Shown: positions 2,719 to 27,825, numbered from the stretch's first letter. The stretch: DNA of 32,000 bases from Candidatus Saccharimonadota bacterium (GCA_963677765.1 OY782392.1:780001-812000); one strand, 5' to 3'. The notes: generated by a model from the sequence alone, not told the origin. Numbers and translations are program-made.

Positions 2719-2750
2719 AAAAACAAGAAGTATTACTTCTTGTTTTTTTG
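2717..2750. terminator. Bidirectional intrinsic terminator
   Basis: Stem AACAAGAAG / CTTCTTGTT with loop TATTA, flanked by an A-run and a T-run. It sits between convergent CDSs. The stop of the minus-strand gene (2733-2735) lies in the loop. Confidence 0.8.
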
Positions 2751-4271
2751 TTTTGTTCAACAATAAGGACATATTTTCATATCTTTTTTTATAGATTTTT
2801 TACATTTTTCACATTTTTTTCTTGTTGTTTTTCTGAAAAGTATAAATATAAGAATAAAAAATATTAATATTAATCATGCAAACATAAAGAAATAAGGATT
2901 TAATCATACATATTTTACTTTATAGTTTACTTGAAATTCTTCTGCAGAGTTAAATTCTATATTTTTTCATTCATAATTTTCATATCAAATCTCAATTACA
3001 GCACTTACATTTTTTTGTTCTAATTTTTCATTTACTCTTTGCCAAGGGAATATCATTCATATGTCAGCAATATTTTGATTTGTATAATACTCAGATGGAG
3101 TCCAATATTTTATTATCTTTTTACCATCTTCATCATAATCTTCATATGGAAATCATTTCCATTCACTAGTATATATTCTTTTTGTGTTTGGTAAAATATT
3201 TCATCAACCATCATTAATAGGAATATAATCAACAATTTTTTCTCATGTTATCATTCAATTTTGATCTTTTATAACTTCTTTTCAGATTCATTTTATTTGA
3301 TTACCATTCTCATCTATTAGAGTTATTTTTCATTCTGGTTTTACATGAGTATTTCAATTATTTTCAAATGGAATGCTTATTTCTATATTAAAATCTTCTT
3401 CTTTTTCTTCATTATTTGTAGCTAATTGATTATTATCTTCATTTGAGTTATTTTCTTGATTTTCATTATTATCTTCTTCTTGCTCCAAAGCTAAATTAGA
3501 GTTATTTTCTAAAGTTAACTCAGTATTTTTATTGTTATTTTCTATACTTATATTATCTCAATCTTTTTCTCATCTGTTTGAAACTATTTCAATTGCTTTT
3601 TCGAAATAAACAGTATCAAAACATTTTCAATCTGTGTCACTACTTGTAAAATCTCAGAATCTACAAACATCTTTAGAGCTAATGTTATTATCTCATCTAT
3701 CTTTTGTCCAATCATATCAACCTCATGATGAACCTGTTCATATATTTATTTCAGGCTCTCAAGGTCAAGCATTATCAATTATTTCTCAATCTACATTTAC
3801 TAATAACAATACTCAATAATCAGCATTTATTTGTACTTTTGATCAATTAATTGATCATTCATCTCATGATGTTTTAAAGAAAACAGCTCAATAATGTCAT
3901 CCTGGAACTGCATCAGTTGGTACTTCTATTTGAAATGTTATGTCATATTCTTCTAATCATCATATAACAAAACTATCAGTATCTATAGTAATCCAGCTTG
4001 CCAATTCTTGATTTGGATTTACTAATTCACTTTTTCTCACAAATGTTGGGTTTCAATATGAATCTCTAGATTCAAAATCAGATACTGAAGTTGTTATATT
4101 GTATGAACCAGTAGAGTTATTTATTAATTTTGCTGATTTTGTAACTATTTCTCATGGTTGAGCTTCTATTTCATATCTAATAGGACTAACTACAAGGTCA
4201 ATATTAGCATTTACACTAGATATATTTATACTAAAAAATAGTAAAACTAAGCTAAATAATAATTTTTTCAT
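2733..4271 (-). CDS. Cell-surface protein resembling WxL-interacting proteins (DUF916/WxLIP_PGBD-like N-domain, second beta domain, TM anchor, C-terminal zinc ribbon), 512 aa
   Basis: The ORF is 1539 nt under table 25, with signal peptide MKKLLFSLVLLFFSINISSVNA. The N-domain reads IDLVVSPIRYEIEAQPGE...SWITIDTDSFVI..EEYDITFQIEVPTDAVPGGHYGAVFF, which fits the DUF916 pattern as I recall it. An acidic Asn/Glu linker follows. The TM helix is PYFFMFAGLILIFFILIFILF, and the tail is CEKCKKSIKKDMKICPYCG. Confidence 0.7.
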
Positions 4272-4382
4272 ATATTTTTAAATTATTTAAATTATTTAAT
4301 AATCCTAATAATATTAAAAATATTTCAAAAATCAAAAAATACCTCTAATTTAGAGGTATTTTTTTAAAATTATTTTTTATAA

Positions 4383-5045
4383 TTAGAAATTACCAGTTAC
4401 AGTAAAAGTAATTTCATCAGTATAGTCACCAGCTGGAGTTTCAGCATCAACATCAACTTCAACAGTAAAAGTTACATCAGCAACAGCATTATCATCTAAT
4501 TCTGGTTTATTTGTTTCGTAAATTTTATGTTCTGTTGTATTATCAGTTACTTCAGTAGCAGTTAAATCACCAGTACTTGTAAATGTACCAATAGTTGAAT
4601 CTACTGCATTTGCAGTTGAAGCATAAGTATAATTATCACCATTAGTGTTATTTATAACAATAGAGTTATCAGAAGTATTAACTAAACCTCCATTTGCAGA
4701 TCTAGCAGTAATTGTAACACCATTTGCTGCATTTGTACCAACTTCGATATCAATACTTGCACTTTCAGCAGTACCAGGATTAATATTACCTAATGCAATA
4801 ACTGAATCAGATAATGTCATATTTAAAGTAGGTAATACAGAAGCAGTTACTTGAACACCAGAAACTGTACCAGTTGCAGTACCAGGAAAATTATCATCCC
4901 AAACTACATTTGAGTCAAAAGCAGCTTGACCTTGTACACCAGCAACACCAATATTAGTAGCTGCGAAAACATTTGCAAAATTTGTCATTGTAATAGCTGT
5001 AATTCAAGCAACAGCAAAAGCTTTTTTTATTTTTGTTTTTAACAT
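4383..5045 (-). CDS. Abundant secreted beta-rich surface protein, WxL-domain-like, 220 aa
   Basis: I extend the track ORF 4383..4988 upstream to ATG 5045, adding MLKTKIKKAFAVAGITAITM with one TGA=Gly; this gives a signal peptide ending VFA/A. The composition is Thr/Asn/Gly/Val-rich and the C-terminus is PAGDYTDEITFTVTGNF, reminiscent of WxL-domain ends. Its only TGA codon is in the signal peptide. Confidence 0.8.
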
Positions 5046-5199
5046 AGTATATGTTTAAAAATATAATATAAATAAATTTTTATTTTAATATCTCAAGAAA
5101 TTTAATTTGAATTTCTTAAGTACAAATATATTCTAGCATATTTATTTTTATAAAGTCAAAAAAAAAGCAGCTTTTTTATAAAAAACTACTTTTTAATTA

Positions 5200-8100
5200 T
5201 TAATAATCAAAAATTATATCAAAATCTATATTTCAAGAATAGCTTCATGCTGCTATATTTTCATTTATATTAGCTCAAAACCTTATACTATAAATATAAG
5301 TATTTTTTTCTCAGTTAATATTTATATTTTTTGCTTGATTTACTATTAATTGGTTTTGATTAATAGTATTTATTGTATTTGTAATAGGTTCTCAGTCATA
5401 TCAAAAACCATTAGTTCAATTCCAATCACTTATGTTTAATCAAGAATAATTTAATTCTCATGATTTATTCATTTGTATATCAAATCAAGCTCAAACAGTA
5501 TTTACTGTTAAAAATAAATCAGGGCTAAATTTATTTGTATTCAAATTATTTATATTTCATATATCAATTATAGAATCAGATATTAAAAATTCTGGTTCAT
5601 CTATATAGAATATTAAATCTTTTGTACTAGTGTTTCATCAATTGTCATCAATACTAAATCTAAATCTATATTTACCATATCATAGGGGAGATATATTATA
5701 TGTAGATTGGTTTATATTATTACTTACTGATGTCTGGTAAGTTGCTAATATATTATTTCACCAACTTGTTCAATTCCATTTACTTAGGCTTGCATTTATT
5801 GTATTCAAATCTAATCAAGACTCATCATTATAATCTATTGTTATACTTTTATTAGAATTTGGTAATAAATCATTATTACTAATATTATTATAATCTATTG
5901 TTGGTTCTGTAGTATCTAAAATAGCAGTATAATGAATTATACCATTCCATATACGAGGAGAAAATGAGTTTTGAAATTCAAATACTTTTCAAATACCTTC
6001 TCTAAATATTATAAAAGCATCTTGTGCAAATATATTTCACTCAGTAGTTCAATTTGTATAACGTATTCAAGAAGTTCATACTTCTGTAACATAAAATGAA
6101 TAAGTTGTATTTGAGTTTAAATTCAAATTATCTATTTCTATATATGTAGGATTTCATTCTCATGCTCATGTAAAAGGGTAATCTCAAACCAAAGTCCATC
6201 AGGCTGCAGCACTTTCAAATCATGCATAACTTCATTGTTTATAGTAAACACGAAGACTAGAGTTAGCAGTTCTTGTATTTATAGATAAGGCATTTACTAT
6301 TACATCGTTATTTAGTATATCTATTTCAAACATATTACCAGCTTGTCAATTTCATCATGCGAATGTAGTTTCTAATCATGATTCTACATTTCAAGTAAAA
6401 TTTACATCATAATGAATTATCCCATTCCATATACGAGGTCTCCATGTATTTGGTCAAAACTCATTACCAACTCATATTCATTCTCTAAATATTAAAAAGT
6501 TATCTTGCGAATATATAGATCATTCAGTAGATCAGTTTGTATAACTTAAATTATCTCAACTGGTATTTAGTATATAAAATGAATAATTACTATTTTCATT
6601 TAATATTAATTCATCAGTTTGAACAAATGTTTGTCATGGTCATCAATTAAAAGAATAATCTCATAACAAAGTCCATGCAGTTGAATCTGTTTCAAATCAG
6701 GCATAAGTTCATGATTTATAATATATTCTTATATCTCATGTTTGAGTTTGAGGGTTTATTGAAAATCATTTTATAGTTATTGATTGATCTAATACTTCTA
6801 TATCAAACATATTTCATCTTTGTCAGTTTCATCAAGCAAATGTAGTTTCTAGTCATGCAAATATTCATCAACTACAATCTCAGTGAAATATGTTATTTCA
6901 ATTTAAATTTACAAATCAAGAATCACTAGGTTTTTGCCAATCAAGTTCTACAACAGCTCAACCTCATCTCTCATAATATTCTAATCTTATATTATATATT
7001 TGTCATTGATTTAAATTTATATTTCATGTTACTATTGTAGGTGCCTGATCTACCCATTGATCTATTATTATATTTCAATCTATATAAAGTCTAACTCAAT
7101 CATCTGATCTTGTACGAAATGTATAATTTCATGATTCATCTGCTTGAAATTTTCATTCCCATTCTACTGTAAAATCATCATTTGGTAATTGTTCATTTGG
7201 ACTTAGATTTCACCAATCAAATCTTACTTCATAATCTGTTTGGCTATTTACGAAATTTATTAGATTGTATGGTTCAGTTGCAGTTCATGTATAGTATTTT
7301 CAGCAAAATCAAGGTGTTCATATTAGAGTATTTAAATTCCAATTTGAATCTACATTTGTTCAATTACTACAAAATCATATAGTATGAGTTTCTCAAGGGT
7401 TAATTATCTTGTTATAAGATAAAGGAGTTATTGTATGAATATTTGTATTTTGGCTATAGTTTCATCAATAACTAGATGATAAAGCTTGATCTAACTCAAA
7501 ATTTAATTGCCATCCATTTATTGTAGTATTTCAATTATTAGTTAATGTTATATCTCTACAAAATCATCAAGCCCAACTATTATTAGTTGTTATACTTACA
7601 TCTAATCAATTATCAGTTAAATTATAATCTTGTAAAACTAGTCATCATATATTTTGATAATTTTTAGTTATTAAATTTGATATATATCATATTCAACTAT
7701 CTGCACATAATCAAAAACTAAGAGTTTGTCATACTGAAAAAGTATCAGCATAAGTTCCTGGTGAAGTTATTATATATTCTCATCATCAAAGATTTGTAAA
7801 GTTTCATCACCAACTACTTGTAATATTAGCTCAGTTTAGTTTAAATCATATTTCCCAGTTTGTTATATTAAGAGTAGAATTATTTGTTGCATTAAACTCA
7901 TAACAAAATCATGTATTCCAATAATTTTCATTTGTAGTATTAAATGAAATAGGAGTTTCTTCTAGAGGAGGAGTATAATCTACTATTAGATTAGCTCTAT
8001 ATACTCTTGCATTTCTAGTTCATCAACCAGTTTTCCTATATTTTAATAGTATTCAAAAATTATTAGATTTTATTTCTGTATCACTCCATGTTGTTCACCA

Positions 8101-8544
8101 TAATTCAGTGTTTGAACCATAAATTGTTATATTTTTTGTTGTCTGACTTGCATTATTTGCCAAATTACTTGTATAAGAATCATTTCAATTTTTTGTTAAT
8201 TCAACAGCAAAATCAGTTACTCTAGTACTGCTACCTTGCCATTCTACTTCAATTTGTATTCAATTAATAGTTGATCATACAGGTATATTTTGTGATTTTA
8301 AATCAAATCATTTTAATATAAGAGTATCAGAAACACTAGGATTATTAGACATATTTACTTGTCAAAAACTAGAGGTATCATCTCAGATTATATTGTTTGC
8401 ATTAGTCCATGAAAAATCTCAGTCATTTATTACTTGTACTTCTCATACATAATTAGATACTATATCAGCATATGATATATTGTTTATACTAAAAATAATT
8501 GAAGTTATTATAAAAAAGTATATTAACTTAATAATTTTCCTCAT
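5200..8544 (-). CDS. Giant secreted adhesin-like protein, 1114 aa: signal peptide, N-terminal beta domain, 2x CBM2-like modules, PA14 domain, 2x unnamed ~160-aa repeat, C-terminal Ig-like region
   Basis: The ORF is 3345 nt, uninterrupted only with TGA=Gly and carrying dozens of TGA codons. The CBM2-like modules read YWNTGFCYEFNATNNSTLNITNWEIGFKLNGANITSSWGGNF and SWAGGFCRDITLTNNGNTTINGWQLNFELDQALSSSYGGNY. The PA14-like stretch reads DFTVEWEGKFQADESGNYTFRTRSDDGVRLYIDGNIIIDQW...IYNIRLEYYERGGGAVVELDW. Confidence 0.85.
5930..6860 (-). repeat. Intragenic tandem duplication, 2 units of ~477-480 nt (159-160 aa), diverged
   Basis: TGTAGTTTCTA(A/G)TCA occurs at 6364-6378 and 6841-6855. CCATTCCATATACGAGG occurs at 5942-5958 and 6422-6438. 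Both protein units run GLETTFAGGNGQxGNMF(D/E)I ... YYKxG(T/S)YAGFE ... YSFY ... YTNG ... PRIWNGIIHY. Confidence 0.85.
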
Positions 8545-8662
8545 TTTTTCTTATTTATTTTATATTTTAAAAATTATATATATAAACTATGTTTTTTCAA
8601 TTAAATTTAAAAATTGTAAAAAAGATTTTTTTGTTTAAAATAGGAGAAATATTTTTTAATAT

Positions 8663-9487
8663 ATGTACTTAGTGAGTTTAGATATACTAAAGAAATACAA
8701 AATAAAAGCTAAAAAATCTTTAGGTCAAAATTTTTTAGTTAATGATGAAATTGTTGAAGAAATTTCAAATATAATTGATGTAAATTGAAGAAATATTATT
8801 GAAGTTTGACCTTGATATTGAGCTTTGACAGAAAGACTAATAAATAAAAAACCAAAATCTTTAAATCTAGTAGAGCTAGATAATGATATGATAGATATAC
8901 TTAATTCAAGAATAAAAAATTGAGATTTTGATTTAGATTGAATTGATTTTAATATAAATAATATAGATGTTTTAAAATATATTCCTGAACAATCAGATTA
9001 TTGAGTTATTGCTAATATACCATATTACATTACTTCACCTATAATTAGACATTTTTTATATAATGTCGAAAATAAGGCAAAATTTATGATAATTCTTATG
9101 CAAAAAGAAGTATGAGATAAAATTTTATGAAACTGAAAGAATAAATCTTCAGTAATAAGTCTTTTTGTTGATAAAAAATGTTATGTTGAAGAAAAAATAT
9201 TTGTTTGAAAAGAAAACTTTGTTCCTGCTCCAAAAGTAGAATCAAGTGTTTTATATTTTGAGCTTCATAATAAATATGACTATATTGATGATATTTTATT
9301 CTTAGAATTTATAAAAAAATGATTTGGTGAACCAAGAAAAAAATTATTTAAAAATTTTGTTAATTCATGATTAGAAAAAAACTTAGTTTTACAATATTTT
9401 AAAGAATTATCAATAGAAGAATGAGTTAGGTGAGAAGATTTAAATATCTGAATTTGGTGCCAATTATTTGAAAAATTTAACAAATAA
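8663..9487 (+). CDS. rsmA: 16S rRNA (adenine1518/1519-N6)-dimethyltransferase RsmA/KsgA, 274 aa
   Basis: Motifs are KKSLGQNFLVN, the SAM motif IEVGPGYGALT (three of its Gly are TGA), ANIPYYITSPI and FVPAPKVESSV. By hand count there are 16 in-frame TGA against 2 GGN codons. Confidence 0.93.
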
Positions 9488-9625
9488 TTAACAACTAAAA
9501 CTTGATGAAAATAAAAATCTTTTTATAATCTGGTCTCCAATAGTGAATTGTTTAAGATATGTTTAATGTATTTTATACAAAAATACAAAATATAGTCTTA
9601 ATATTTATAATGTTAATCTAATCCC

Positions 9626-10972
9626 ATGGATAAAAAAGCTATAGTCCATATAATGACTAAGTCTAGGATGAAGAGTGATGTTTTTACCTCTGATATTGAT
9701 GCTATAGAAGAAATTTCTGAGAAATATTGAGTAAAAAATGTAATTTTTTATAAATGAGAACCTATAGAATATGCTGACTTGATAACTAAGTTAGAAAAGT
9801 TTGGTATATTTGTATATAATTATCAAAATAAAGAAGATTTAAAAGAACAAGTAATAAAATTTTCTAAAGAATATGAAGTAGTTTTTGTAACAACTGCTAT
9901 AGAATTACTTATTAATACAGTAAATGAAGTAAAAGAGTCTTTATGAAGACCTCTTTCTGAAAATCCTGATATTTTCAGAAATAAGTTTTTACAAAGAGAA
10001 TTAATACAAAATCATAATCCTGATTTGTGAATTAAGTTTATGAAATGAACTCCTGAAGATTTGAATATAGAAGAAGTTGAAAATCATGTTTGATATCCTT
10101 TTATAATAAAGCCAGTTGATTGAGTTCAAAGTTCTTGAGTAGCAAAAATCAGAAATAGATCTGATTATAATAACTATATGAAAACTTATAATGATTTTCA
10201 TGATAGATTGAAATCAAGATGAGTTGATAATAAAGATTTAATAGTTGAAGAATTTATTGATGGTACATTGTATTCTATAGATTACTATGTTAACGATAAT
10301 TGAGAAACAACTATATCAAAACCAGTTAAGGTTAGACTTTGAATAGATGTAAAAGTAAATGACTATTGTAATATAGCTAGAATATCTTCTGAAAAAACAG
10401 AATGAGAGTTTAAATGAAAAAGATTAAAAACTTTTGTTAACTCTACTATAAAAGCTACTTGAATAAGAAATACTTTTGTTCATCATGAGTTCAAAATTAA
10501 TAGTAAATGAGAATTAAAAACTATTGAGTTAAATGGTAGACTTGGTTGATGAAGATTAGAATTAATAAAAAGAGCATATGATTTCAATATGTATGAAATG
10601 GTATGTAATCCTGATATAAAAATTTGAAAATTAAAAGAAAGTAATATAGTTGTTAATATATATTCAACAAAAAGATGAATGTTGAGAGCATATAATGAAG
10701 ATTTATTATCAAAAATAGAAAAAAGAGATTCAGTTTATAAAATAGAAAAATATGACTGATTCTTATGAAAAGAAACTTGATTAACAAAAGATTGATTTAT
10801 TAAGGTTTGAGCTATTAGAATGGCTAACAAAGATTATGATGAACTAGCTAAAGATTTTAGATATATCAAAAATAAATATAAAGATTTATTAATCATTGAT
10901 GAATTTGATGAAAATCATAATATAAAACAAAAATGAATATTTTCAAAAATTAGAGAATATATTAATAGATAA
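9626..10972 (+). CDS. ATP-grasp domain ligase (carboxylate-amine/peptide ligase type), 448 aa
   Basis: Under table 25 the ORF is 1347 nt. Motifs are GYPFIIKPVDGVQSSGVAKI, LIVEEFIDGTLYSIDYYV and FVHHEFKINSKGELKTIELNGRLGGG, i.e. the typical ATP-grasp phosphate-binding, linker and Mg-binding regions. Confidence 0.85.
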
Positions 10973-11008
10973 AAAAATAGTAAGACTTATTGTCTTACTA
11001 TTTTTTTA
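10971..11008. terminator. Bidirectional intrinsic terminator
   Basis: Stem ATAGTAAGAC / GTCTTACTAT (10977-10986 / 10992-11001) between an A-run and a T-run. The TAG stop of the minus-strand gene (10998-11000) lies inside the stem. Confidence 0.8.
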
Positions 11009-12836
11009 TTAGTGCATTTTTTCTTAGTTTCTTCATAGAATTAAGAGCATCTTGAATAATGTCTTCATTGTAACTGATATTTTGTCATATAATATCCATT
11101 ACTTCTAGCTTTACTTTTTGTCTTTCTTCTTCAGTTGAGTGTGTGTATATATTTTTTAATCATATATTGATTATACCATCTATACTTATTTTTGTTTTAT
11201 TTGAAACTATATTTATTCAGTATTCATTAAAATCTAATATAGGATATTTTATTGAAATATATTTTATAAAATCCATTTCATCTAATTCTTTTCATTGCAT
11301 TCTTTGTTTTATTGCAAAAAATACTATATCAGAATAAAACATTGGCTTTAGTATTTTTTTTGAATTTATTTCATTTTTGATTTCAATTAATAATTTAATC
11401 TCATCAAATCAAACTTTTCATAAAAATAAATCTTCAAATTTTATTCATTTTTCACCATCAGATAATATATATTTATTTATTTCTTTTGCTGCCTGGAATA
11501 ATCATCTTGTATATGTTGTGTCTTTGTGTTGTACTCAGATTTTATTAGATCTTTTTAGTCTAAATAATCTATCTTTTACAGATATTATGTCTTTTTCTAA
11601 TTTGTTTGATATTATTAAAAAATCTATTAATTCTTCATTTGTTAGTATTTCAGCAAAAAGTATTTTTATAAAATTACTATTAAAATCTAATTTTTTTTCA
11701 TCAATAATATATTTTCATGTTTTTTTATCTATTTTAAAAATTTGTTCTCAATACTTCAGCATATTTTCCATCAAAATTGCTGCTCATTCATCTTTTTGAG
11801 TTGATCATTTTCATCTAATATTTCATATCAATATTTGAGAATTATGCTCTGAAATATTGTGAGTTTCATTTTCATGTGAATTTAAGGCTAGAAATCTTGG
11901 AAAATCAAAAAAAGCAAAACTTTCAGTACTTGGTATTTGAAATCAGTTTGGTCAGTCAGATATACTTTTAGCATAATTATTAACCTCTACATTAAAGTTC
12001 ATTTTTTTGAATGCTTCTATAAAAAGATTGAATCATAAAATATAATCTTTTTGACTTAGCTTATATTTAGATAATTCATTTAATTTATTTTGATTGCTAT
12101 TTGATTCTTTGTATTGGAATCATATTTCTAAAAATGACTCTAATTTTTTTATATATCATAAAAATCTTTCTTTTTCTTCTTGGTTTATTTTATGTTTATT
12201 TTTTTCAAATATAGTTTTGACTTTTGTATAACATAATCAAACTTCTTCAGGGTTTTCTTTTATTAATCATCAAAATAATTTTTTATCTATATCTCTTTGT
12301 TTTTTATTTATTTTTGATTCTTCTTCATTTTTTAATTCAATATCTAATCATGCCTTTTCTTCTTCAAATACTAATCAATTTAAACAATATTTTAGTAAAA
12401 GAATTTTTTCATCTAGTGAATTCTTAAGTATTAGTATTTTATTTTTATTTTTTGTTTTTAGTTTATCTATATTTATTTTTTCTATAAGATCTTTTGAAAT
12501 TTTTATTTCTTTTATTTTGCTTTTTATTTTCTTTCTTAATTTTTTAGATGCTTTTTTAACCTGTTTTATTTTTTCACTATCGTCTGATTCTAAAAATAAA
12601 TTTATATCTAACTCTCATAAACTTATGAATAGGGTAGTATTTATATTTACTTCTCTTCAGTTTAATATTAACTTTTCTCATGTTTTTTCATTTGTATTTA
12701 AATATGAGTAAGTTACTTCAGCTATTTTCCACATTTCTTGTTTTATCCATATTTCATCATCATAAACTAGAGAAGTTATATCATTTATAAACTCCTCTAG
12801 TTTTTCTATTCAAAAATTTTCTAGATTTTTTTTCAT
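10998..12836 (-). CDS. DUF1704/MATCAP-like (QEGLA-motif family) putative Zn-metallopeptidase with a long Lys/Glu-rich N-terminal region, 612 aa
   Basis: The ORF is 1839 nt under table 25. The core reads FQIPSTESFAFFDFPRFLALNSHENETHNISEHNSQILIGNIRGKGSTQKDEGAAILMENMLKYG, followed by HKDTTYTRG. Its layout parallels the CDS at 14926-16062. The family call is from memory of the HE..H ... (Q)EG(L)A signature. Confidence 0.6.
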
Positions 12837-12962
12837 AGATTTGATAAAATAAATTAATTCTATTCTAAAATAACATATTTCCTCTATTTTTTCAAATTCT
12901 TTACTTTTTGTTTTTTATTTATAGAATATGCAAAATTAATTTTAACAAGACTTTTAAAAGAT

Positions 12963-14846
12963 ATGAATTTAGAAAAGATTAGGAATTTTTGTATAATCGC
13001 ACATATAGACCATGGTAAATCAACTTTGGCTGATAGATTATTAGAAATAACATGAACTATTGATAAAAGATGAATGAAGCATGGACAAATGCTTGATACA
13101 ATGGATTTGGAGCAAGAAAGATGAATAACTATAAAGCTTCAACCAGTTAGAATGCAATGGAAGTGATATGAAATGAATATAATTGATACTCCAGGTCATG
13201 TTGATTTTCAATATGAAGTTTCTAGAAGTTTAGCTTCTGTAGAAGGTGCTTTATTGATTGTTGATGCTACTCAATGAATTGAAGCTCAAACCCTTAGTAA
13301 TGTTTATATGGCAATAGAAAATGACTTAGATATCATACCAGTTATAAATAAAATAGATTTACCAGCTGCTGATGTTGATAAAGTAAGTGAAGAAATAATA
13401 AATTTACTTGGTTGTGATAAATCAGAAATTATACCAGTATCAGCTAAAACATGAGAAAATGTTGAAACAGTATTAGATGAAGTTATATCAAGAATTAGTT
13501 CTCCTCAAGTATTTGAAGAAAGTTTATGAACAGACAAAGATGAATTAAAAGCTCTAGTTTTTGATAGTCAGTATGATCCTTATAGAGGTGTAGTTAGTTA
13601 TGTAAAAGTTTTTAAATGAGAAATTAAAAAATGAGATAATCTAACTTTCTTGCATACAAACAAAAAAATAGAAGCATTGGATGTAGGATATTTTTCTCCT
13701 AGTTATGTTAGTGATAAAAAAATTGAAAATTGATCTGTTTGATATGTTGTTACTGGTTTAAAAAACTTGGAAAATGCAAAAGTATGAGATACTTTATGGA
13801 AACCAGAGAATAAAGAATGACCAAAAGATAAAGCAGAAGATGCAAAACCTATAGAATGATTTAGTGAAGCTAAACCTTTTATATATGCAGGTATATATCC
13901 TATGGATAGTAGTGAATACCCTCAATTGAAAGATGCAATGGAAAAGCTTATATTAAATGATTCTGCATTAAGTACTGAATCTAGTGTTTCTCAGGCTTTA
14001 TGACATGGTTATAGATGTGGTTTCTTATGATTATTACACTTGGATATAGTAAAAGAAAGGCTTTTTAGAGAGTTTGATATGGATGTTATAATGACATCTC
14101 CTCAAGTAACTTATAAAATAAAATTTTATTGAGATAAATCATCTGAATATAATAGATTTCATCCTGAAGTTTTCGAACTTGAATGAAAAAAATATACTTA
14201 TATTTATATATCTAATCCAGAAGATTTACCTGATAGAGAAAAATATTTAACTATTGAAGAACCAATTGCAAAAGTAGAAATAATTACCCCAAGTGAGTAT
14301 GTTTGAGCTCTTATGCAACTGTCTCAAGAAAGAAGAGGTAAATTTGTAAATCAACATTTTATAGATACAACTAGAGTTATGATAGTTTATGAATTACCTA
14401 TGAATGAATTAATAGGGGATTTTTATGATGAAATAAAATCTTTATCTAGTTGATATGCATCTATGAACTATGAATTTATAAAGTATAGTGAAGATGATAT
14501 GGTAAAATTAGATATAGTTATTGCTGATGAAAAAGTGGAAGCGCTATCTTTTATCACTCATAGAGATCAAGCTCATTATGTTTGATGAAAACTTTGTGCA
14601 AAATTAAAAGAAACAATACCAAGAGCTTTGTTTTCGATAAAAATACAGGCTGCTGTTTGATCTAAGGTTGTTGCTAGAGAAACTCTTAGTGCTCTTAGAA
14701 AAGATGTTACTGCTAAGCTTTATGGTTGAGATATTACAAGAAAGAAAAAGCTTCTAGAAAAACAAAAAAAAGGTAAAAAGAAAATGAAACAATTTGGTAA
14801 AGTTAGTTTACCTAGTGAAGCTTTTGTTAATTTATTAAAAAAATAA
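12963..14846 (+). CDS. lepA: Translation elongation factor 4 (LepA), 627 aa
   Basis: Motifs are [37 protein letters not shown] (that Gly is TGA at 13122), [17 protein letters not shown] and the NKID box. The C-terminal LepA region is [18 protein letters not shown]. Confidence 0.95.
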
Positions 14847-14869
14847 TGGATTTTCCATTATTTTTTTTT
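14837..14869 (+). terminator. Intrinsic terminator after lepA
   Basis: Stem AATAATGGA / TCCATTATT (14842-14850 / 14854-14862) followed by a T-run of eight. Confidence 0.8.
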
Positions 14870-14925
14870 AATATAATTATATATTTGTTTATTTTTATAA
14901 ACACTAACTAATTAATTTTTTTGTT

Positions 14926-16062
14926 ATGGATTTATTTATAAAGTTTTTGAAAGAAATTTCAAAGAATAATATTCATTTGATTAAGCCTTTAAAAAAGAGT
15001 AATATAACTCAAAACCCAGTTATTTTTTGATATAGTAAAGTTCCAAACTTAAAAGAATATAGATATATATATCTTTGAAAGCTATATAAACAAAAAGTTA
15101 AACTTGAACAAATAAATAAGCGTATAAAGTTAAATAAGATAAAATTATGAGAGCAAAGATATAAAATTCTTTCAGAAGAAATTAAATATATTTATAAAAA
15201 AATAGATTTTTTAAAAAATGTTTATGATTTTGAGGCAAATAAGATAGATCCAAAATATAAAATATCTTATCCTGAGATGGATTATGATTATTTTAATAGA
15301 GCATTTTTTTGAGTTAAAAAATCTGATATATGTAAAGATACATATATAGAAGATATAGATGAAAAATATACAAATGTTTCAAAGGCAGATTTAAAAGAAT
15401 TACTGGAATTATCTAAAAAGTTAGTCCCGTGATTGAATTATAAATTTTGATCTTATGCTTTTATGTCACATAGTTCTGGTACTTTGGTAATACCTACAAA
15501 AAAATATTATACATCTAGAGAGTTAGTTACACTTTTTTTTCATGAAATGACACATTTTTTTAGAAGATATAATAATATAGCTAATTATCAAACTACTCAT
15601 TGATTTTCAGATTATATGAAATTAGAAGAATGATTCGCATTGTATAATGAATATTATTATTGAAAAAAAATATTACCAAATATCAAATACAACCCTTTTT
15701 ATGATGCATGTTATTGTATTCTTTTAAATAACAAATTAAATAAAATACAAAAACAAGAAAAGATATATAAAATTCTAAAGGTAAAATGATTTAGTAGGGA
15801 AAAATCATTACATTATTATTATCGTTTTTATCGTTATAGTTCTTTTAAAACAGATCAATATTTTTTAAAAGATTTAATTTATACTAAATGATATAAAAAA
15901 GTTAATAGGTTATTAAAACTAAATAAAAAAAATTATAACTTAATTTTTTCTGGTAGAGTATGACCTAAAATGTTGAAAACTGATTTATGTATAACTCAAA
16001 ATAACTTTGATACAAAAACTTATTTTGAAACTATGTTAAAAGAAATACAAAAAAAGATATAG
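14926..16062 (+). CDS. DUF1704/MATCAP-like gluzincin metallopeptidase, 378 aa
   Basis: The ORF is 1137 nt under table 25. The core reads GTLVIPTKKYYTSRELVTLFFHEMTHFFRRYNN...DYMKLEEGFALYNEYYYG, i.e. HExxH plus a downstream EEGFA glutamate. A later FLKDLIYTKGY segment is present. Confidence 0.7.
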
Positions 16063-16084
16063 AGTTAATTCTATATCTTTTTAT
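16051..16084. terminator. Bidirectional intrinsic terminator
   Basis: Stem AAAGATATAG / CTATATCTTT (16053-16062 / 16071-16080). The plus-strand TAG stop sits in the 5' arm, and the minus-strand stop is at 16081-16083. Confidence 0.8.
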
Positions 16085-16560
16085 ATACTTATATTTATAC
16101 TTATTTCTATATCTTGAGCGTCTTCACCTAGAGGATTTTTCATTTTAAAAATATTTAATCCTGGTTTTATATATATCGGTTCATTTATAATAGTTGGAGT
16201 TTTTATTATATCTTTTATTCTTTCCACCATATCGCTTGGATTTGTATTTGATTTTATAACATAATCATCAGCTCAGTTTTGCATAGCTTCATCTAGTTTT
16301 TCATTGTCTACTACATTAGTAAATACTAATATCTTACAATGACTTGATGTTTGATGTTTTATTGATTTTAATGTATCAAATCAATTCATTACAGGCATCA
16401 TTAAATCTAATAATATAACATCAGGATTGAATTCTGATATTTTTGTTAATCAATCTAATCAATCACATGCTTCCATTACTTCAAATCATGATTTTCTTAG
16501 TTTTATAGCATACATTTCACTTAAAACTTTATCATCTTCTATTATTAATATTTTTTTCAT
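16081..16560 (-). CDS. Response regulator, receiver domain only (CheY-like) with a ~40-aa tail, 159 aa
   Basis: The sequence MKKILIIEDD...PDVILLDLMMPVMNGFDTLKSIK...ILVFTN...GADDYVIKS carries the acidic pocket, the phospho-Asp and the conserved K. No DNA-binding output domain is present. Confidence 0.9.
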
Positions 16561-16566
16561 AGTCTT

Positions 16567-17274
16567 TTAATTATTTATTAAATCAATTTCAAAATAAAAA
16601 TTACTTCATTTTCATATTTCAGATTTTACTTTTATTTGCGATCAAAAATCTTTTATAAAATTTTTACATAAGGCAAGTCATAATCATAATCAGCTAGTAT
16701 TATGTCTTTGCATACTTGATTCTATTTGAGTAAATTTATCAAAAAGTAATTCTATTTTTTCTTTTGCTATACCTATTCAATTATCTATTATTTCAAATAA
16801 TACTTTAGATTCTTTTTTTGTTGCTTTTAGAATAATTTTTCATCCTGGTTTTGTAAATTTTATAGCATTACTTAATAAATTTATAAAAACTTGTTTTAAT
16901 CTATCTTCATCTATATTTATTTTTTCATTTTTTAATCTTTTATCTATATTTATTTCAAAATCTAATCATTTAGTTTCCATTTCTAAAAACATATCATTAT
17001 AAGTAGATTTTAATAATTCAGTTATATCTACATTTTTTTTGTAGTATTCCATTCTTCAAGATTCTATTTTTGACAAAGCAAGAACATCGTTAACTAGTTT
17101 TATCAACCTAACAGAGCTATCATAACAATGATTTAAAGCTTTTCTAGCATCATCACTTATCTCTCACATATCTCACTCTAAAATCATAGATGTGTATCCT
17201 CTAATAGATGTAAGAGGTGTTCTCAGTTCATGTCATACAATTGATATATATTCTTGGCTTGTATGAGGATTCAT
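16567..17274 (-). CDS. Histidine kinase consisting only of DHp + CA domains (no TM or sensor domain), 235 aa
   Basis: The H-box VGHELRTPLTSIRGY starts at residue ~13. The N-box is NLLSNAIKFT, G1 is DNGIGI and G2 is GLGLGLALC. It ends 6 nt upstream of the response-regulator start. Confidence 0.9.
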
Positions 17275-17360
17275 TTTGAAAATATAATTATAAATATAAT
17301 CTACATTTATATTGTATCATAATCCTTTTTAAAAAAGCCAAAAAAAGTATAAAAATTGTT

Positions 17361-17388
17361 TTGACAAATGCTTGTTTTTTAATATAAT
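17361..17388 (+). promoter_or_regulatory. Near-consensus sigma70-type promoter for tRNA-His
   Basis: TTGACA (17361-17366), a 16-nt spacer, then TATAAT (17383-17388), about 29 nt upstream of the tRNA. Chance matches are common in AT-rich DNA. Confidence 0.55.
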
Positions 17389-17416
17389 CAGCCTGCTTTT
17401 ATTAAAAAGTATTTGT

Positions 17417-17494
17417 GGTGCCCGTAGTTTAGTTGGTTAGAACATCAGGTTGTGACTCTGAGGGTCGTGGGTTCGAGTCCCATCGGGCACCCCA
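17417..17494 (+). tRNA. tRNA-His (anticodon GTG) with encoded G-1 and encoded 3' CCA
   Basis: I folded the cloverleaf by hand. G-1 is followed by acceptor GTGCCCG/CGGGCAC and D stem GTTT/GAAC. The anticodon stem is TCAGG/TCTGA with loop TTGTGAC. The T arm is GTGGG-TTCGAGT-CCCAT, followed by C73 and CCA. Confidence 0.93.
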
Positions 17495-17676
17495 TTTTTT
17501 TTATTTGAAGTTTGATTAAAGTTTATTAAAATTAAAAGTTTTTAAGTAGAAAGTTTTAAGTCCTAACTTGCTTTTTACTACATAGATTTTTAATTTTTAT
17601 TGTTTTTAAAGCCTTATAAAACCTAAATAATAAAAAAATCTAGTTTATATTTTATTACTTAACGTATATTTGCATT

Positions 17677-18822
17677 ATGGCAAAAAATGATTTAACTCTG
17701 TTTGAAGAGTTGTTTGCAGCATCTCCTGAAATTAAATACCCAAAACAAGGAGAAGTTATTTCTGGTACTATTGTTAAAATAGAAAAGAAAAATATTTTAG
17801 TAAATGTTAACAATCAATTTACTGGTTTAGTTGTTTCTAAAGAAGTAGGTAATACTATTGATTTAAATGAATTACAAGCTGGTCAATCTATTGATGTTAT
17901 GGTTTTAGGTGACTCTGTTGAAAGAGGTTTATTAATCCTTTCTCTTAAAAGAGCTAACCAAATCAAAAACTTATCAAATCTTACTAAATATAACGAAACT
18001 AGTGAAATTATTACAGTTAGACCAACTGAAGCTAATAAATGAGGTTTATTAGTTGATATTGATGGTTTAAAAGGGTTTATACCTGTTTCTCAATTAACTC
18101 CAATTCACTACCCAAGAGTTGAAGGAGCTGATCCTGAAAAAATTCTTGCTCACTTAGACGGTTTAGTTGGTGAACCATTCAAAGTTAGAGTTATAAATGT
18201 AGATGAAGCTGGTAAAAAAATCATTTTCTCTGAAAAAGCTGCTATAGAAGAAAACAGAGAAAAAGCATTAACTAACTTAAAAGAAGGTGATGTTGTTGAA
18301 GGTACTGTTTCTGGTATCTTATCATATGGTTTATTCGTTACTTTTGATTGATTAGAAGGTTTAGTTCACGTTTCTGAAATTGATTGGGGACATGTTACAG
18401 ATCCTTCAAAATTTGCTAAAGTTTGAATGAAAGTAAAAGTAAAAGTTATAGGACTTGATAGTGAAAAAATTTCATTATCTATAAAAAGATTAAAAGAAAA
18501 TCCTTGGGATGTTCTTGCTAAAAAATACAAATTAAACGATTCAATAACTGCTCCTATTTCTAGAATTTCTAAATTTGGTGCATTTATGGACTTAGAAGGT
18601 GGAATACAAGGTCTTATCCATTTATCTGAAATTTCTCACGGAGTTGTTAAAGATATTAGAGATCATGTTAAAGTTGGTGAAGAAGTTACTGCTAAAATCA
18701 TCAATTTTGAACCAGAAAAGAAAAGAATTGGTTTATCTTTAAAAGCTTTACAAGAAGCTCCTAAAGAAACTGAAGTAAAAGAAGAAACTAAAGAAGATTC
18801 AAAAGAAGAAGCTTCAAAATAA
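17677..18822 (+). CDS. rpsA: 30S ribosomal protein S1 (four S1 domains), 381 aa
   Basis: Track fragments 17677..18042 and 18427..18822 are in one frame (1146 nt), joined through 3 TGA=Gly. The contexts are ANKGGLLVDI, FDGLEGLVHVSE and AKVGMKVKV. S1-domain motifs repeat. Confidence 0.93.
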
Positions 18823-19744: not shown

Positions 19745-19808
19745 TATTGCATTTTTAGAGGAATAATTATTATATAGTTATTCCTTATTCTTTAAAAAAA
19801 TTATAAAA

Positions 19809-20123
19809 ATGAATAATACTGAAAACCAAAATGCTAGAGTTAAAAATGCTCTATGTTATATTCCTGTTGTTGCTTTTGTTTTATTTTTTATTGAAGAAAA
19901 TAAAACTCCAGACTTAGACAGAAATATAAAATATTGAATGATATTTTTTGCAGTATATTTTGTACTATCAATAATAATATCGTTTTTTCTAACTGGTTTA
20001 TTATTTTTGATATATATGTGATTAAGTATCTTCTTTTGATACAAAGCATATATAGGTGAAGATGTAAAAGTAGAGTTTATTGATAATTTTTTAGAAAAAA
20101 ATAAAAAAGATAAACAAGACTAA
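19809..20123 (+). CDS. Small DUF4870-like membrane protein, 104 aa
   Basis: ATG 19809 to TAA 20121-20123 with 3 in-frame TGA. The sequence ARVKNALCYIPVVAFVLFFIEENKTPDLDRNIKYG is followed by two further hydrophobic helices. Confidence 0.7.
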
Positions 20124-21257: not shown

Positions 21258-21332
21258 AGTCCCATAGTTAAACGGCTATAATTCAGGACTCCAAATCCTG
21301 CGTTCAAGGTTCGATTCCTTGTGGGACTGCCA
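21258..21332 (+). tRNA. tRNA-Trp (anticodon CCA) with encoded 3' CCA
   Basis: Acceptor is AGTCCCA/TGGGACT. The anticodon stem is CAGGA/TCCTG with loop CTCCAAA. The T arm is CAAGG-TTCGATT-CCTTG, followed by discriminator G and CCA. Confidence 0.93.
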
Positions 21333-23243: not shown

Positions 23244-23393
23244 TTGTTTTTTATATTATATATTAATTTTATTATATAAAAATGTTTTATTTTTTCAATA
23301 AATAGTTGATTATAAGCTATTTTTTAATTTTAAATTTGGGTCTTTATTATTTATGAATATTATATCTAATATATTTAATACAAATTATAACAA

Positions 23394-24653
23394 ATGAAAT
23401 TTAACGAATTAGGTCTTGTATGACCTTTACAAAAAGCATTGGATAAAGAATGATTTGATACTCCAACAGAAATACAAGAAAAAGTTATACCTTTAGCTTT
23501 AAAATGAAAAGATATATTAGCTAGTGCTCAAACAGGTAGCGGTAAAACTTTTGCTTTTGTATTACCTATATTACAAAGCCTTTATAATGAAAGAAAAGAG
23601 CTAGAAGAACAAGGTAAAGCAAAAAGAAAATTACAAGCTCTTATTATAGCTCCTACTAGAGAGTTAGCTATACAGATAGGAGATTCTATGAAACTATATT
23701 GTTCTAATGTAAATCTTAAAAGTACTACTATTTATGGTTGAGTTAATGATTTTCATCAAAAGAAAGCTATAGAAAAATGAATAGATATATTAGTTGCTAC
23801 TCCTTGAAGATTGGAGGACTTAATTAATCAATGAGTTATAAAACTATCATATATCGACTATTTAGTATTAGATGAAGCTGATAAAATGTTGAATATGGGA
23901 TTTTTACCTGATATAAAAAAGGTAATGAAAAGAATACCAGAAAAAAGGCAAACTTTATTTTTCTCAGCTACTATGCCAAAAGAAATAAAAGAATTAGCTT
24001 CTAGTTTATTACATTGCCAAGAAGAAGTAAAGGTTCATAAAGTTGCTTCTACTACAGAAAATATAAATCAACAAGTTTATCATGTAAAAGCTAGTCATAG
24101 AAGACAATTACTACAATACCTTGTAAAAAAAACAGAATTTGATTCTATACTTGTTTTTGTTAGAACAAAAGATGATACAGAATATGTTTTAGAATATATA
24201 AAATCTATATGAATAAAAGCTGATAATATTCATAGAAATAGATCTCAAAATGCTAGACAAAGAGCTTTGAAGGCATTAAAAGATGGAGAAATAAAAGTAT
24301 TGGTTGCAACAGATATAGCTTCTAGATGATTGGATGTAAATGATTTATCATGTGTTATAAACTATAATATACCATTAGAACCAGAAGATTATGTTCATAG
24401 AATATGAAGAACAGCTAGAGCTGGTAAAAAATGAGTAGCTATAACATTTTGTATAGATCATGAAAAAGAATATTTAAAAAAAGTAGAAGAAACTATTGGT
24501 AAAAAAGTAAAAGTTATTGATGATGATTCATATAAAAATGAAGTAATACCAAAAACAAAAATACTTTGATATGATAATTTTCAAGAATGATTTAAGAAAA
24601 AACCAAAAACTAACCCAAATAAAAAAAGATATTATTCTAAAAAGAAAAAATAA
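23394..24653 (+). CDS. DEAD-box ATP-dependent RNA helicase (RhlE-like), 419 aa
   Basis: The Q motif region is GFDTPTEIQ. Further motifs are [21 protein letters not shown] (Gly is TGA at 23805), LDEADKM, SAT and HRIGRTARAG (the first Gly is TGA). The C-terminus is a basic tail. Confidence 0.92.
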
Positions 24654-25056: not shown

Positions 25057-25181
25057 CTTTTACTCCTTTTTGTTTCAAAAAATGTTTAATTATTGTAAAA
25101 TAAAAACTTTTTTAGTCAATTTTATCTTGCATAATATTATTTTTTGTCTAATATAAAAAAAATAAATTATAAACTTTTATT

Positions 25182-25964
25182 ATGGTTGATAAAACAAAAA
25201 ATAATCTTGATGTAGAACAGTTTTTAGATTTTTTAGAAACTAATTCTGTTAACAGTTTACCAGAGTCATTATATGAAGTACAGAACCTTATAAAAGTTGA
25301 AATAGAAAATATATTATGACAAAATGTTTTATCTCAATTGCTTATAAAATCAAAAGAGTATTGACTTATTACTATAAGTGAAAATTTAATAAATGATTTT
25401 GAACAAGAAAAAGAAATAAAGATACTTTGAGTAGATAAGGAAAAACTAGAAACAGATTTATTGGAAAAAGCATGAGCAAAAATGGTTTTTAAATGAACTG
25501 TTATAGATGTGTATTATGATTTTGAAAATGATGCTATAGAAAAAACAAAATGAAAAACAAGTTTTAGAATAAGGGAAAAAATTTGAGAAGATGGAAAATC
25601 TACTTTTTATTATACTATTAAAAGAAAAGAAAAAAAAGATGAAGATTCTTCTGTAATGAGAGTTTGTTATGAAAAAGAATTCAAGATAAATGACATAATG
25701 TTATTCATAGAGTTATTAAATCATTTATGATTTAAAAAAACTAGAGCCAAGAAAAAAGATAGAGTAGCATATGAATTATGAAAAATAAAATTTGATATTG
25801 ATTCTTATGAATGAATACCACCATTATTAGAAATAGAAGCTCATACAGCTAAAATTGCTGAATTTTATATAGAATCTTTATGATTGTCTTCTCTTGAAAA
25901 AAGTAATTGATGATCTAGAAGTTTATATGAAAAATATGATAAAACTTATAAAACTTTTGAATAA
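25182..25964 (+). CDS. CYTH-domain protein (class IV adenylate cyclase / triphosphatase fold) with ~70-aa N-terminal extension, 260 aa
   Basis: The ExExK strand is EKEIKIL. It is followed by FRIREKIGEDGKSTFYYTIKRK and CYEKEFKI, then KKDRVAYELGKIKFDIDSYEGIPPLLEIEA. It is uninterrupted only with TGA=Gly. Confidence 0.78.
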
Positions 25965-26002
25965 AAAATAACATAGAATAAAAATTCTATGTTATTTTTT
26001 TA
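25963..26002. terminator. Bidirectional intrinsic terminator (13-bp stem AATAACATAGAAT / ATTCTATGTTATT)
   Basis: Stem at 25967-25979 / 25984-25996 between an A-run and a T-run. The SulP TAG stop (25987-25989) lies inside the 3' arm. Confidence 0.85.
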
Positions 26003-27750
26003 TAAATCATTTTTTCTCATATTTTCTCTATTTTTTTGTTTTTTGCTTTGTATTTTAATAATGGTTTTAAGTCTAGATCTTTTTTTTCATTTTGTTTTTT
26101 TAGATATTCTATTATATCTTGTAATTTTTCAAATACTTTATCTTTTCATATAGATTCAATAAAACCTACATTATCTAATTTATTTAATACTTTTATCCTA
26201 AGATTACAGTAATAAACTTTTATCAATTGTTTTCTAAGTCTATAATCTAAATCTCTAAGAACTACATAGCTTGAAGAATCTATATTTCATACCCATTCGA
26301 AGTCAAATATAACTATCTTAAGATCTGGTTTTTCAGATATATAATTTAATATTTTGCTCTCAAAATGTCATGCATTAGCAAAAAATAAATTTCAATCAAC
26401 TCTAAAAACAGATACATATTTTGATTTTTTAATTTTGAAAAAATTAGCATCTCTAAATATTCAGTTTTTATACATTGAAACTTCAATCACCTTTGGTTTC
26501 ATAGATCTATATATATGAAAAGCAAGAGATAATATTACTCATACAGCTATTCACATTTCTACATTTGGACTAGTAAACATTGTTGCTAGAAATGTAATAA
26601 TGGCAACATAAGCATCTTTTTTTTGTACTTTCCATGCTTCTATTATAGGTTCAATTTTTATTAAATCAGAAACAGCAATTATTATTATTGCAGCTAAAGT
26701 AGCAATTGGTAAATGATATAACATTGGAGTTAAATATATCAATGTTATTGCTACTATTATTCATGTAACAATAGATGCTGCTCATGTTTCTGCTCCTGCT
26801 CTAAGATTTACAGCAGTTCTAGAAAAACTTCATGCAACTCAATATCATCAAAAAATTGACGATCACATATTAGCAGCAGCTTGTCATAATAATTCTCTAT
26901 TTGCTGATACTTTTTGTTTTGTTTTAACAGCTACTCATTTAGCAACTGCTATAGATTCTGTAAATCATATAAGTCATACTATAAATGCAAATAACATTAC
27001 TTTGTATGTATTTTCTCAAAATAGTATTTCTGTAGTAAAATTTAAATTCAGATTTGGTAATCAACTAGGTATTACTCAAACAACACTTCATCAATAATTT
27101 ATTTCAAATCATATTTGATATGATACAGCTATTGATATTATCAATAAAAATAATACTCTTGGAACTTTTGGGAGAAATTTTTTTAGTATTAACAAAAATA
27201 ATATTGCTATAAATCAAAATAAAAATGTTATTAAGTGTAATTCATCTAATGATTTTATGATAATTTGCCAAGTATGTTCAAAAATTCAAAGTCATTTAGT
27301 TATAGAAAATCAAAAAATTTTTTCAGCTTGAGCTATTATTGTTATAAGTGCTATTGCATTTGTAAATCATACAATTACTGGGTGTGATAAAAACTCTACT
27401 ATTATTCACATTCTAAAAATTGATAGTATCAAATATGTTAATCACATAAAAAATGCCATCATAGAAGCATAAATAATATATTGCTCCATTGATTGTAATC
27501 ATAGAGATCATATAGTTGCTGCAGTCATTATTGATACTATAGTAACAGGTCAAGTAGACATTTGTTTACTAGATCAAAATAATCATCATATTATAACTCA
27601 TACTAAAGCAGTATAAAGTCATATATAAATAGGCAATCATGCTAATCAAGCATATGCCATTGATTGAGGTATGATAACTAGAGCTACTGTTATTCATGCT
27701 AATAAGTCAGCTCTAAAAAATGTTTTTATTTTATTTTTTAATTCTGTCAT
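25987..27750 (-). CDS. SulP-family inorganic anion transporter with C-terminal STAS domain, 587 aa
   Basis: The ORF is 1764 nt under table 25 and is in frame with track fragment 26551..26742. Motifs are LLAGITVALVIIPQSMAYAGLAGLP, TGPVTIVS, NRELLGQAAANMGSSIFGGYGVAGSFSRTAVN and YHLPIATLAAIIIIAV. The STAS-like end is DANFFKI...VFRVDGNLFFANA. Confidence 0.92.
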
Positions 27751-27825
27751 AGTGTTTTAATGACTATTTATTATATTAATTTTATCATATATATTTTAAA
27801 AAATAAAATATTAATATTTTTATAT

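Follow-up and report, generated by a model that had tools for sequence, protein, structure and literature searches.

Pairs made up of an ATP-grasp ligase and a dedicated peptidase are a known kind of enzyme system, exemplified by TTL/MATCAP, RimK/RimB and RloC/RloA. In the tubulin cycle, an ATP-grasp ligase (TTL) and a carboxypeptidase act on a free C-terminus. The MATCAP/TMCP proteins (KIAA0895L and KIAA0895; family PF08014, formerly DUF1704) are protein C-terminal carboxypeptidases whose metal site is formed by an extended HExxxH motif together with the glutamate of an EEG motif (PMC10499314). Among bacteria, RimK/RimB (poly-glutamylation of ribosomal protein S6 and its reversal) and RloC/RloB/RloA of Pseudomonas have been published as pairs of an ATP-grasp ligase and dedicated peptidases, and in the Rlo system the effect of losing the proteases is suppressed when the ligase is lost as well. 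In a Photobacterium transcriptome, an ATP-grasp gene and the adjacent gene for a QEGLA protein were co-induced 38- and 27-fold at low salinity. Here, we describe a locus in a 32,000-nucleotide stretch of DNA from Candidatus Saccharimonadota bacterium (GCA_963677765.1 OY782392.1:780001-812000), hereafter the window, in which a predicted ATP-grasp ligase is encoded near two proteins that resemble the DUF1704/MATCAP peptidases.

The three genes, with UGA read as glycine, are as follows.

9626-10972, + strand: ATP-grasp protein, 448 amino acids, 25 UGA codons
10998-12836, - strand: long DUF1704/MATCAP-like protein, 612 amino acids, 29 UGA codons
14926-16062, + strand: short DUF1704/MATCAP-like protein, 378 amino acids, 12 UGA codons

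We consider it somewhat more probable than the contrary that they represent a cytosolic ligase/carboxypeptidase module, that is, a functional ligase/hydrolase pair. The gene boundaries had been proposed in an earlier reading of the window without database searches (here, the sequence-only reading) and were borne out under genetic code 25; the motif strings quoted at that time are present in the proteins and are invariant in each family.

The ATP-grasp protein matched PF13535 (ATP-grasp_4) at 1.6e-25, and the Pfam search returned no match to PF08443 (RimK) or PF03133 (TTL) at E<=1. Against TIGR00768 (rimK_fam) it scored 25.6 bits, the cutoff being 143.4. Its closest solved structures are L-amino-acid ligases: BL00235 was found at 1.4e-9 with the single sequence and at 4.3e-13 with the family profile, and in the profile search it was followed by BacD (4.6e-8) and then by D-Ala-D-Ala ligases (Ddl). 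No TTL or TTLL chain appeared in the PDB searches, and no RimK structure in the profile search. The protein shares its domain layout with BL00235 and BacD/YwfE over approximately 300 residues and has kept the catalytic motifs, but the similarity is remote (E 1e-9 to 4e-13) and the substrate specificity is not transferable; furthermore, the known L-amino-acid ligases are found in antibiotic or dipeptide clusters and not beside carboxypeptidases within a housekeeping gene order. The intact motifs of the window protein are KPVDGVQSSGV (10109-10141), VEEFIDG (10244-10264), HHEFK (10481-10495) and IELNGR (10523-10540), corresponding to the family-invariant P-loop-like KPxxGxxSxGV, EEF, HHE and ExNxR, and the invariant residues include K162, K174, E208, E209, H286, H287, E288, E301, N303 and R305. 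We therefore classify the protein, on its profile matches, as a predicted amidoligase of the ATP-grasp_4 or L-amino-acid-ligase type that is not RimK- or TTL-like. The sequence-only reading had drawn its parallels from RimK and TTL, and the order of relatives found, L-amino-acid ligases and then Ddl, comes close to the placement among metabolic ligases that it had itself set against its proposal. Across 14 loci, median identity to the window was 65% for the ATP-grasp protein, 67% for RsmA, 70% for RpsB, 65% for the short protein and 41% for the long protein, so that the ligase is conserved at the level of its housekeeping neighbours RsmA and RpsB.

The two peptidases appear to belong to the DUF1704/MATCAP superfamily, as divergent members, and to be remotely paralogous; membership and paralogy had been suggested in the sequence-only reading, and three profile-based lines converge on this assignment. 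First among these are the PF08014 matches of family members. The short window protein passed the gathering score of 27 narrowly (29.8 bits, E 3.8e-7, profile positions 155-324 of 365) while the long window protein reached 20.1 bits, under that score, with residues 435-488 in the C-terminal motif region only; the HMM (hidden Markov model) check proposed earlier came out for the short protein, and with TIGR02421 the window proteins stood at 20 bits, the cutoff of 338 not being reached. Within the families, PF08014 was matched by 14 of 29 long-family members (best 1.4e-10) and by 9 of 25 short-family members at E<=0.01. The second line is a short-family profile search of 1.84 billion (1.84e9) representatives, which recovered only about 26 full-length clusters of its own kind, so that the family is small, followed by a tail of canonical PF08014 members (10 of 10 tested, 80-176 bits). 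Lastly, hhalign aligned the short family to canonical PF08014 proteins at 99.3% (E 2.5e-20) and the long family at 98.1% (E 1.1e-13, 203 columns), with the His motif, the EEG glutamate, RxKR and KDxxY all in register. The long and short families aligned to each other at 90% (E 1.7e-6), a paralogy visible at the profile level only, BLASTP between the two giving nothing significant. PDB searches with sequences and profiles of both peptidase families did not reach MATCAP. Some of these proteins are already labelled "DUF1704" or "ATP-grasp domain-containing" by NCBI.

Canonical bacterial DUF1704 members carry HEIGTH or HEVDTH, TEEGLA, RxKRG and KDxVYxxG, with R296, R299, G300, K305, D306, Y309 and G312 invariant. 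The long protein, which has additional helical regions at its N- and C-termini, carries IPSTES, HENETH (residues 321-326; window 11859-11876), KDEGAA (348-353; KDEGAAILME at 11766-11795), RLKRS (11547-11561) and VQHKDTTYTRG (435-445; 11502-11534), and H321, E322, E324, H326, E350, E357, R426, K428, R429, K438, D439 and Y442 are invariant in 29 sequences. The short protein carries IPTKK, HEMTH (206-210; 15541-15555), LEEGFA (233-238; LEEGFALYNEY at 15622-15654), RFYRYS (15823-15840) and LKDLIYTKG (314-322; LKDLIYTKGY at 15865-15894), with R300, R303, K315 and Y319 in its C-terminal motifs. In the hhalign alignments, H321, E322 and H326 of HENETH and E350 of the DEG motif fall on canonical HEIxTH and EEG, and the C-terminal RxKRG and KDxVYxxG motifs have counterparts in both families; the short family invariably has HEMTH (HExxH), which is aligned to the canonical proteins with a one-residue gap inside the His motif. 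The sequence-only reading had regarded HENETH as carrying one extra residue and the longer protein as a diverged copy. This was mistaken, since HExxxH is the canonical form in MATCAP/DUF1704 (PMC10499314), and the relation is reversed: judged by these motifs, the long protein is family-typical and the short protein, with HEMTH, the deviant variant within the superfamily.

AF2 models were made from correctly translated orthologs of the two peptidases (P0004 and P0039), with pLDDT values of 93 for the short and 90 for the long protein. Their best Foldseek matches were weak and belonged to other gluzincins, namely an M32 carboxypeptidase (E 0.034, probability 0.93), M61 and ACE (E 0.13). The fold evidence is thus loosely supportive, suggesting from models a weak resemblance to gluzincin carboxypeptidases, and no structural confirmation is claimed. 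In comparison with MATCAP/TMCP and TTL, the window peptidases belong to the same superfamily, the long protein has the same extended HExxxH plus EEG-type metal motif, and partnering a C-terminal carboxypeptidase with an ATP-grasp ligase would follow the same logic; however, the homology is very remote, with no PDB match by sequence or fold, the short protein has HExxH, the ligase is not of the TTL family and there is no tubulin.

The linkage of ligase and hydrolase was followed by scanning the genome collection with the ligase alignment, which gave 48 loci, mostly labelled Gracilibacteria, Absconditabacterales or "Peribacteria" and in a few cases just Patescibacteria group or unclassified bacterium. 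Open reading frames (ORFs) were called in each locus with code 25 and searched with the family HMMs. The orthologous loci share a backbone in the order rsmA, ATP-grasp, long gene (opposite strand), second ATP-grasp, lepA, short gene, response regulator/histidine kinase (RR-HK) pair and rpsA-rpsB-tsf, in which the long gene, the second ATP-grasp, the short gene and the RR-HK pair are variable. Two of the backbone genes in the window are:

8666-9487, + strand: rsmA, 16S rRNA dimethyladenosine transferase, upstream neighbour of the ATP-grasp gene and co-directional with it (PF00398 annotated in L001)
12963-14846, + strand: lepA (EF4), between the long and short genes; LepA motifs read directly

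Hydrolases were counted in 27 assessable orthologous loci; L017, L020 and L026 were left out for a scaffold gap or contig ends. A hydrolase gene was found beside the ligase in 26 of the 27, being the long gene in 18, the short gene only in six and an FGase gene only in two. The linkage in relatives on which the sequence-only reading depended is therefore present. In the two FGase-only loci (L013 and L015), one or two genes for FGase-family amidohydrolases lie immediately 3' of the ligase and co-directional with it, as if the hydrolase had been replaced by a non-orthologous one. In five genomes (L008, L010, L024, L027 and L028), an ATP-grasp copy stands on either side of the long gene, and in 10 loci the short gene is the next gene after lepA. 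In one genome (L001/L004), the position of lepA on the far side of the long gene is taken by PNPase, and the group of rsmA, ligase and long gene is unbroken. It is the presence of a hydrolase, not its type, that goes with the ligase, the long, short and FGase proteins being interchangeable. The gene rsmA lies directly 5' of the ATP-grasp gene in 29 of 29 assessable orthologous loci, an adjacency that serves as context only.

Several further observations concern this slot. The FGase (PF05013) genes lie between the ATP-grasp gene and lepA where the long gene is absent (L013 11397-13571; L015 2362-3321), and in L029 an FGase gene (4415-5428) adjoins the long gene. The second ATP-grasp copy, of the same family, sits between the long gene and lepA, for example at L010 13314-14687. 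In L011 (11424-13240), the long gene of a metagenome-assembled genome is split into two overlapping ORFs, for which a frameshift, a pseudogene or an assembly error is possible.

The sequence-only reading had also taken the setting among translation genes as evidence on the substrate. Because the backbone is present with or without the peptidases and lepA can be replaced by PNPase, this setting is an inherited syntenic backbone that provides no specific evidence on the substrate. Adjacency to lepA or to rpsA-rpsB-tsf was consequently rejected as a substrate pointer, and lepA is not considered part of the module.

ATP-grasp and DUF1704 are also associated outside the orthologous loci. A second ATP-grasp_4 clade, 30-41% identical to the window ligase, is present in the same genomes. 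In one of its loci (L032), a short-type DUF1704 gene and then two ATP-grasp_4 paralogs are arranged in tandem, the distances between the genes being 20 and 6 bp. A conserved fusion protein of approximately 825 amino acids, in which ATPgrasp_ST (8.5e-42) is joined to a C-terminal DUF1704 domain (59.6 bits; HEVDTH, DEEGLA), is encoded in eight loci and is represented by:

L038 226-2691, + strand: ATPgrasp_ST-DUF1704 fusion (orthologs in L035, L037, L039, L040, L041, L042 and L044)

The fusion gene is directly upstream of the ATP-grasp_4 paralog in six of these eight loci, four of which show an overlap or a 4-bp gap between the two genes, and a 7TM_transglut gene adjoins or is near the ATP-grasp gene in seven. 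The expanded clusters L038, L041 and L044 add a 623-amino-acid DUF1704-like protein, and L038 also holds RimK-like ATP-grasps, which agrees with the statement in the sequence-only reading that QEGLA proteins are often encoded beside RimK-related ligases. In Proteobacteria, QEGLA proteins are typically encoded beside genes for a RimK-related or GshB-like ATP-grasp and a 7TM (inactive) transglutaminase. In clusters of the Gracilibacteria/Absconditabacterales type, a RimK-like ligase, DUF1704 and 7TM_transglut recur together as they do with bacterial QEGLA proteins (TIGR02421), whereas at the window locus the partner ligase is ATP-grasp_4 and there is no 7TM protein. These loci support a conserved ATP-grasp/DUF1704 association in several independent arrangements, including a domain fusion. 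In the literature searched, we found no mention of such an ATPgrasp_ST-DUF1704 fusion and no paper mentioning both MATCAP and ATP-grasp. Another paralogous locus, L046 (9863-16289), has an ATP-grasp_4 paralog with a Mur-ligase-like gene 2 bp on, a pairing reminiscent of the domain make-up of cyanophycin synthetase; its neighbours encode an M29 aminopeptidase, a 527-amino-acid DUF1704-like protein and a short-type DUF1704 protein.

The reading frames on which these comparisons rest depend on the genetic code. ORF calling with table 11 gave almost no long ORFs in the window, which has a G+C content of about 22%, and the coverage by long ORFs rose from 6 kb to 41 kb once UGA was read as sense. 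The UGA codons fall on invariant glycines of conserved proteins, among them LepA (DATQ[G]IEAQT and ER[G]ITIK) and RsmA (GPGxGALT), and the tRNA-Trp of the window has the anticodon CCA. As these two observations agree, we conclude that the organism uses code 25 (UGA=Gly), the code of Gracilibacteria and Absconditabacteria. The same two observations rule out code 4 (UGA=Trp); table 11 was discarded and all ORFs were translated with code 25. No tRNA-Gly(UCA) was found in the window. The public entries for the window's own proteins (P0001 and P0104) and for many orthologs have been translated with UGA=Trp and show W at every UGA-encoded Gly, e.g. EEWFA instead of EEGFA; the Gly-rich catalytic motifs are therefore corrupted and HMM scores are lowered.

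The arrangement of the genes within the window differs in one respect from the earlier description of the ATP-grasp and long genes as back-to-back. They are indeed adjacent, but they are convergent and form separate transcription units, with stop codons 25 bp apart inside a hairpin:

10968-11010, no strand: perfect inverted repeat of 19 bp with A and T runs on its flanks; the stops of the ATP-grasp and long genes lie within it

This hairpin was the sole terminator-like site in a scan of 8400-17700 and is likely, from its sequence, to be a bidirectional terminator of the two convergent genes. The short gene is co-directional with lepA and starts 79 bp past the lepA stop; an RR/HK pair, rpsA, rpsB and tsf follow downstream. 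Neither a signal peptide nor a transmembrane segment was predicted in the ATP-grasp, long or short protein of the window. Within the window, the coupling of the three genes is by proximity only.

In the module that we favour, a free alpha-carboxylate would be activated by the ATP-grasp enzyme, at the expense of ATP, to an acyl-phosphate, to which an amino acid would be joined through an alpha-peptide bond, and the DUF1704 enzymes (or FGase) would take the C-terminal residue or residues off again. The long protein would act through its canonical HExxxH and the (D/E)EG glutamate, and the short protein through the HExxH variant and EEG. We infer that the ligase and peptidases of the window act on the same bond, and the direction of the chemistry and the nature of the substrate are likewise inferred. 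A free amino acid, a short non-ribosomal peptide or a poly-amino acid would be a more likely substrate than a protein tail, given the type of the ligase, the replacement of DUF1704 by FGase, the 7TM proteins of the paralogous clusters and the analogy with RimK (poly-Glu) and RloC. As in RimK/RimB and RloC/RloA, the proposal involves a cytosolic ATP-grasp amidoligase whose product is undone or removed by a peptidase dedicated to it, and RloB is a 7TM transglutaminase-type partner of the sort also seen in the paralogous clusters; in those systems, however, the peptidase is a retropepsin-like aspartic protease and the ligase belongs to the RimK family, whereas the window peptidases would be gluzincins and the window ligase falls outside that family. 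New here are a ligase partner of the L-amino-acid-ligase type, the short family with its HExxH variant, the slot in which hydrolases are interchangeable and the conserved ATP-grasp-DUF1704 fusion.

Several points weigh against a functional pair. Operon-level coupling of the three window genes is absent, since the ATP-grasp and long genes converge across a probable terminator and lepA separates the short gene. One of the 27 assessable loci (L023) has no visible hydrolase, and the orthologous loci are not independent observations because much of the linkage is shared by descent. The long window protein itself falls below the Pfam gathering score, and the DUF1704 fusion partner, ATPgrasp_ST, is of a different ATP-grasp family from ATP-grasp_4. 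Foldseek with both confident models gave nothing against the PDB at E<=1e-3 and MATCAP was absent from the hits. The literature searched contained no biochemical characterisation of any bacterial DUF1704/MATCAP protein and returned mostly Plasmodium gene IDs. Some of these points, together with others, favour an absence of functional coupling, in which the ATP-grasp protein would be a stand-alone metabolic ligase producing, for example, a dipeptide, an osmolyte or a cell-wall precursor, the DUF1704 proteins would be general peptide-scavenging carboxypeptidases of an episymbiont auxotrophic for amino acids, and the gene order would be inherited. The separate termination of the convergent genes, the very different rates of the ligase and the long peptidase (65% versus 41% identity), the nine assessable loci without the long gene beside the ligase, including the one with no visible hydrolase, and the L-amino-acid-ligase/Ddl-like character of the ligase all fit this explanation. 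We nevertheless consider it unlikely, as it does not account for the refilling of the hydrolase slot directly 3' of the ligase by unrelated FGase genes, for the long gene being sandwiched by two ATP-grasp copies in five genomes, or for the close linkage between ligase paralogs and DUF1704 in three or more further architectures, among them a tandem operon and a position beside the fusion.

The sequence-only reading had proposed a reversible tagging cycle on the translation apparatus, of the kind formed by RimK/RimB on S6 or TTL/MATCAP on tubulin, with the ligase adding amino acids to the C-terminus of S6, S1, S2, EF-Ts or LepA and the DUF1704 peptidases trimming them. We now regard this as distinctly improbable. 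The nearest characterised relatives of the ligase, which lies outside the RimK and TTL families, make free dipeptides, and the translation-gene backbone is lineage-wide irrespective of the long and short genes, with lepA swappable for PNPase. FGase, found instead of DUF1704 in two genomes, has a small N-acyl-amino acid as its substrate, and the presence of a 7TM membrane protein in the paralogous clusters speaks for a product that is exported or belongs to the envelope, not for a ribosomal one. The proposal does draw on RimK/RimB as a proven bacterial ligase/peptidase cycle on RpsF, on the constant position of rsmA before the ATP-grasp gene and of the short gene directly after lepA in 10 loci, on the housekeeping-level conservation of the ligase, and on MATCAP/TMCP being protein C-terminal carboxypeptidases (PMC10499314). 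Equally doubtful to us is a reversible, cytosolic system in Gracilibacteria for C-terminal amino-acid tags on one or more proteins, possibly of the translation apparatus, with an ATP-grasp of the L-amino-acid-ligase type as writer and carboxypeptidases of the MATCAP type as erasers. The envelope hint has been carried further in a reading that we hold to be very unlikely: the module would make and turn over an envelope-associated or exported peptide or poly-amino acid, in keeping with proposals for RloABC and the 7TM-transglutaminase systems, the window copy being a streamlined cytosolic remnant of a larger cluster of the fusion, RimK-like ligases, the 623-amino-acid DUF1704 protein and 7TM_transglut. 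The ATP-grasp_4 paralog does occur inside such clusters in at least eight genomes, the Rlo genetics indicate a toxic ligase/7TM product that is removed by proteases, and the Photobacterium ATP-grasp/QEGLA pair is induced at low salinity. Yet no 7TM_transglut, ATPgrasp_ST or exporter adjoins the window locus, all three window proteins are predicted to be cytosolic and the window ligase is just 30-41% identical to the cluster paralog.

The remainder of the window contains other features. A secreted protein of 1114 amino acids with PA14 and two CBM_2 domains is encoded at 5200-8550 (-), and beside it are genes for proteins with signal-peptide-like N-termini and a T2SSF/PilC gene (2733-4277 -, 4383-5054 -, 1978-2718 + and 104-1243 -); these genes resemble a neighbourhood for surface/adhesion functions and a type IV pilus, which an episymbiont would be expected to have. 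The genes for tRNA-His(GTG), at 17418-17494, and tRNA-Trp(CCA), at 21258-21332, lie just 5' of rpsA and after tsf, respectively, and tRNA-His(GTG) is preceded at 17361-17388 by a perfect match to the sigma-70 consensus, the sole one in the region scanned. The genes rpsB and tsf are usually adjacent; here, an ORF of about 105 amino acids, membrane-like by eye, is wedged between them at 19767-20123 (+). Further downstream are two DEAD-box RNA helicases (23391-24653 + and 27968-29788 +), the second of which carries a DbpA RNA-binding domain and a Gly/Arg-rich tail, a CYTH-domain protein (25173-25964 +) and a SulP/STAS transporter (25987-27756 -).

The locus and its relatives present a compact, conserved and testable case of MATCAP-type peptidases partnered with an ATP-grasp enzyme and, in some relatives, fused to one. 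A practical lesson concerns the many UGA=Trp public entries of this lineage, which distort Gly-rich motifs and HMM scores. Should a tagging cycle be true, the fusions would further imply that ATP-grasp and MATCAP-family enzymes were first paired in prokaryotes, before the tubulin tyrosination cycle of eukaryotes arose. A functional pairing would give a role to a widespread domain of unknown function and identify a strongly conserved, so far unexplained enzyme of minimal episymbiotic bacteria, and it would suggest bacterial roots for the ligase/carboxypeptidase logic of the tubulin code.

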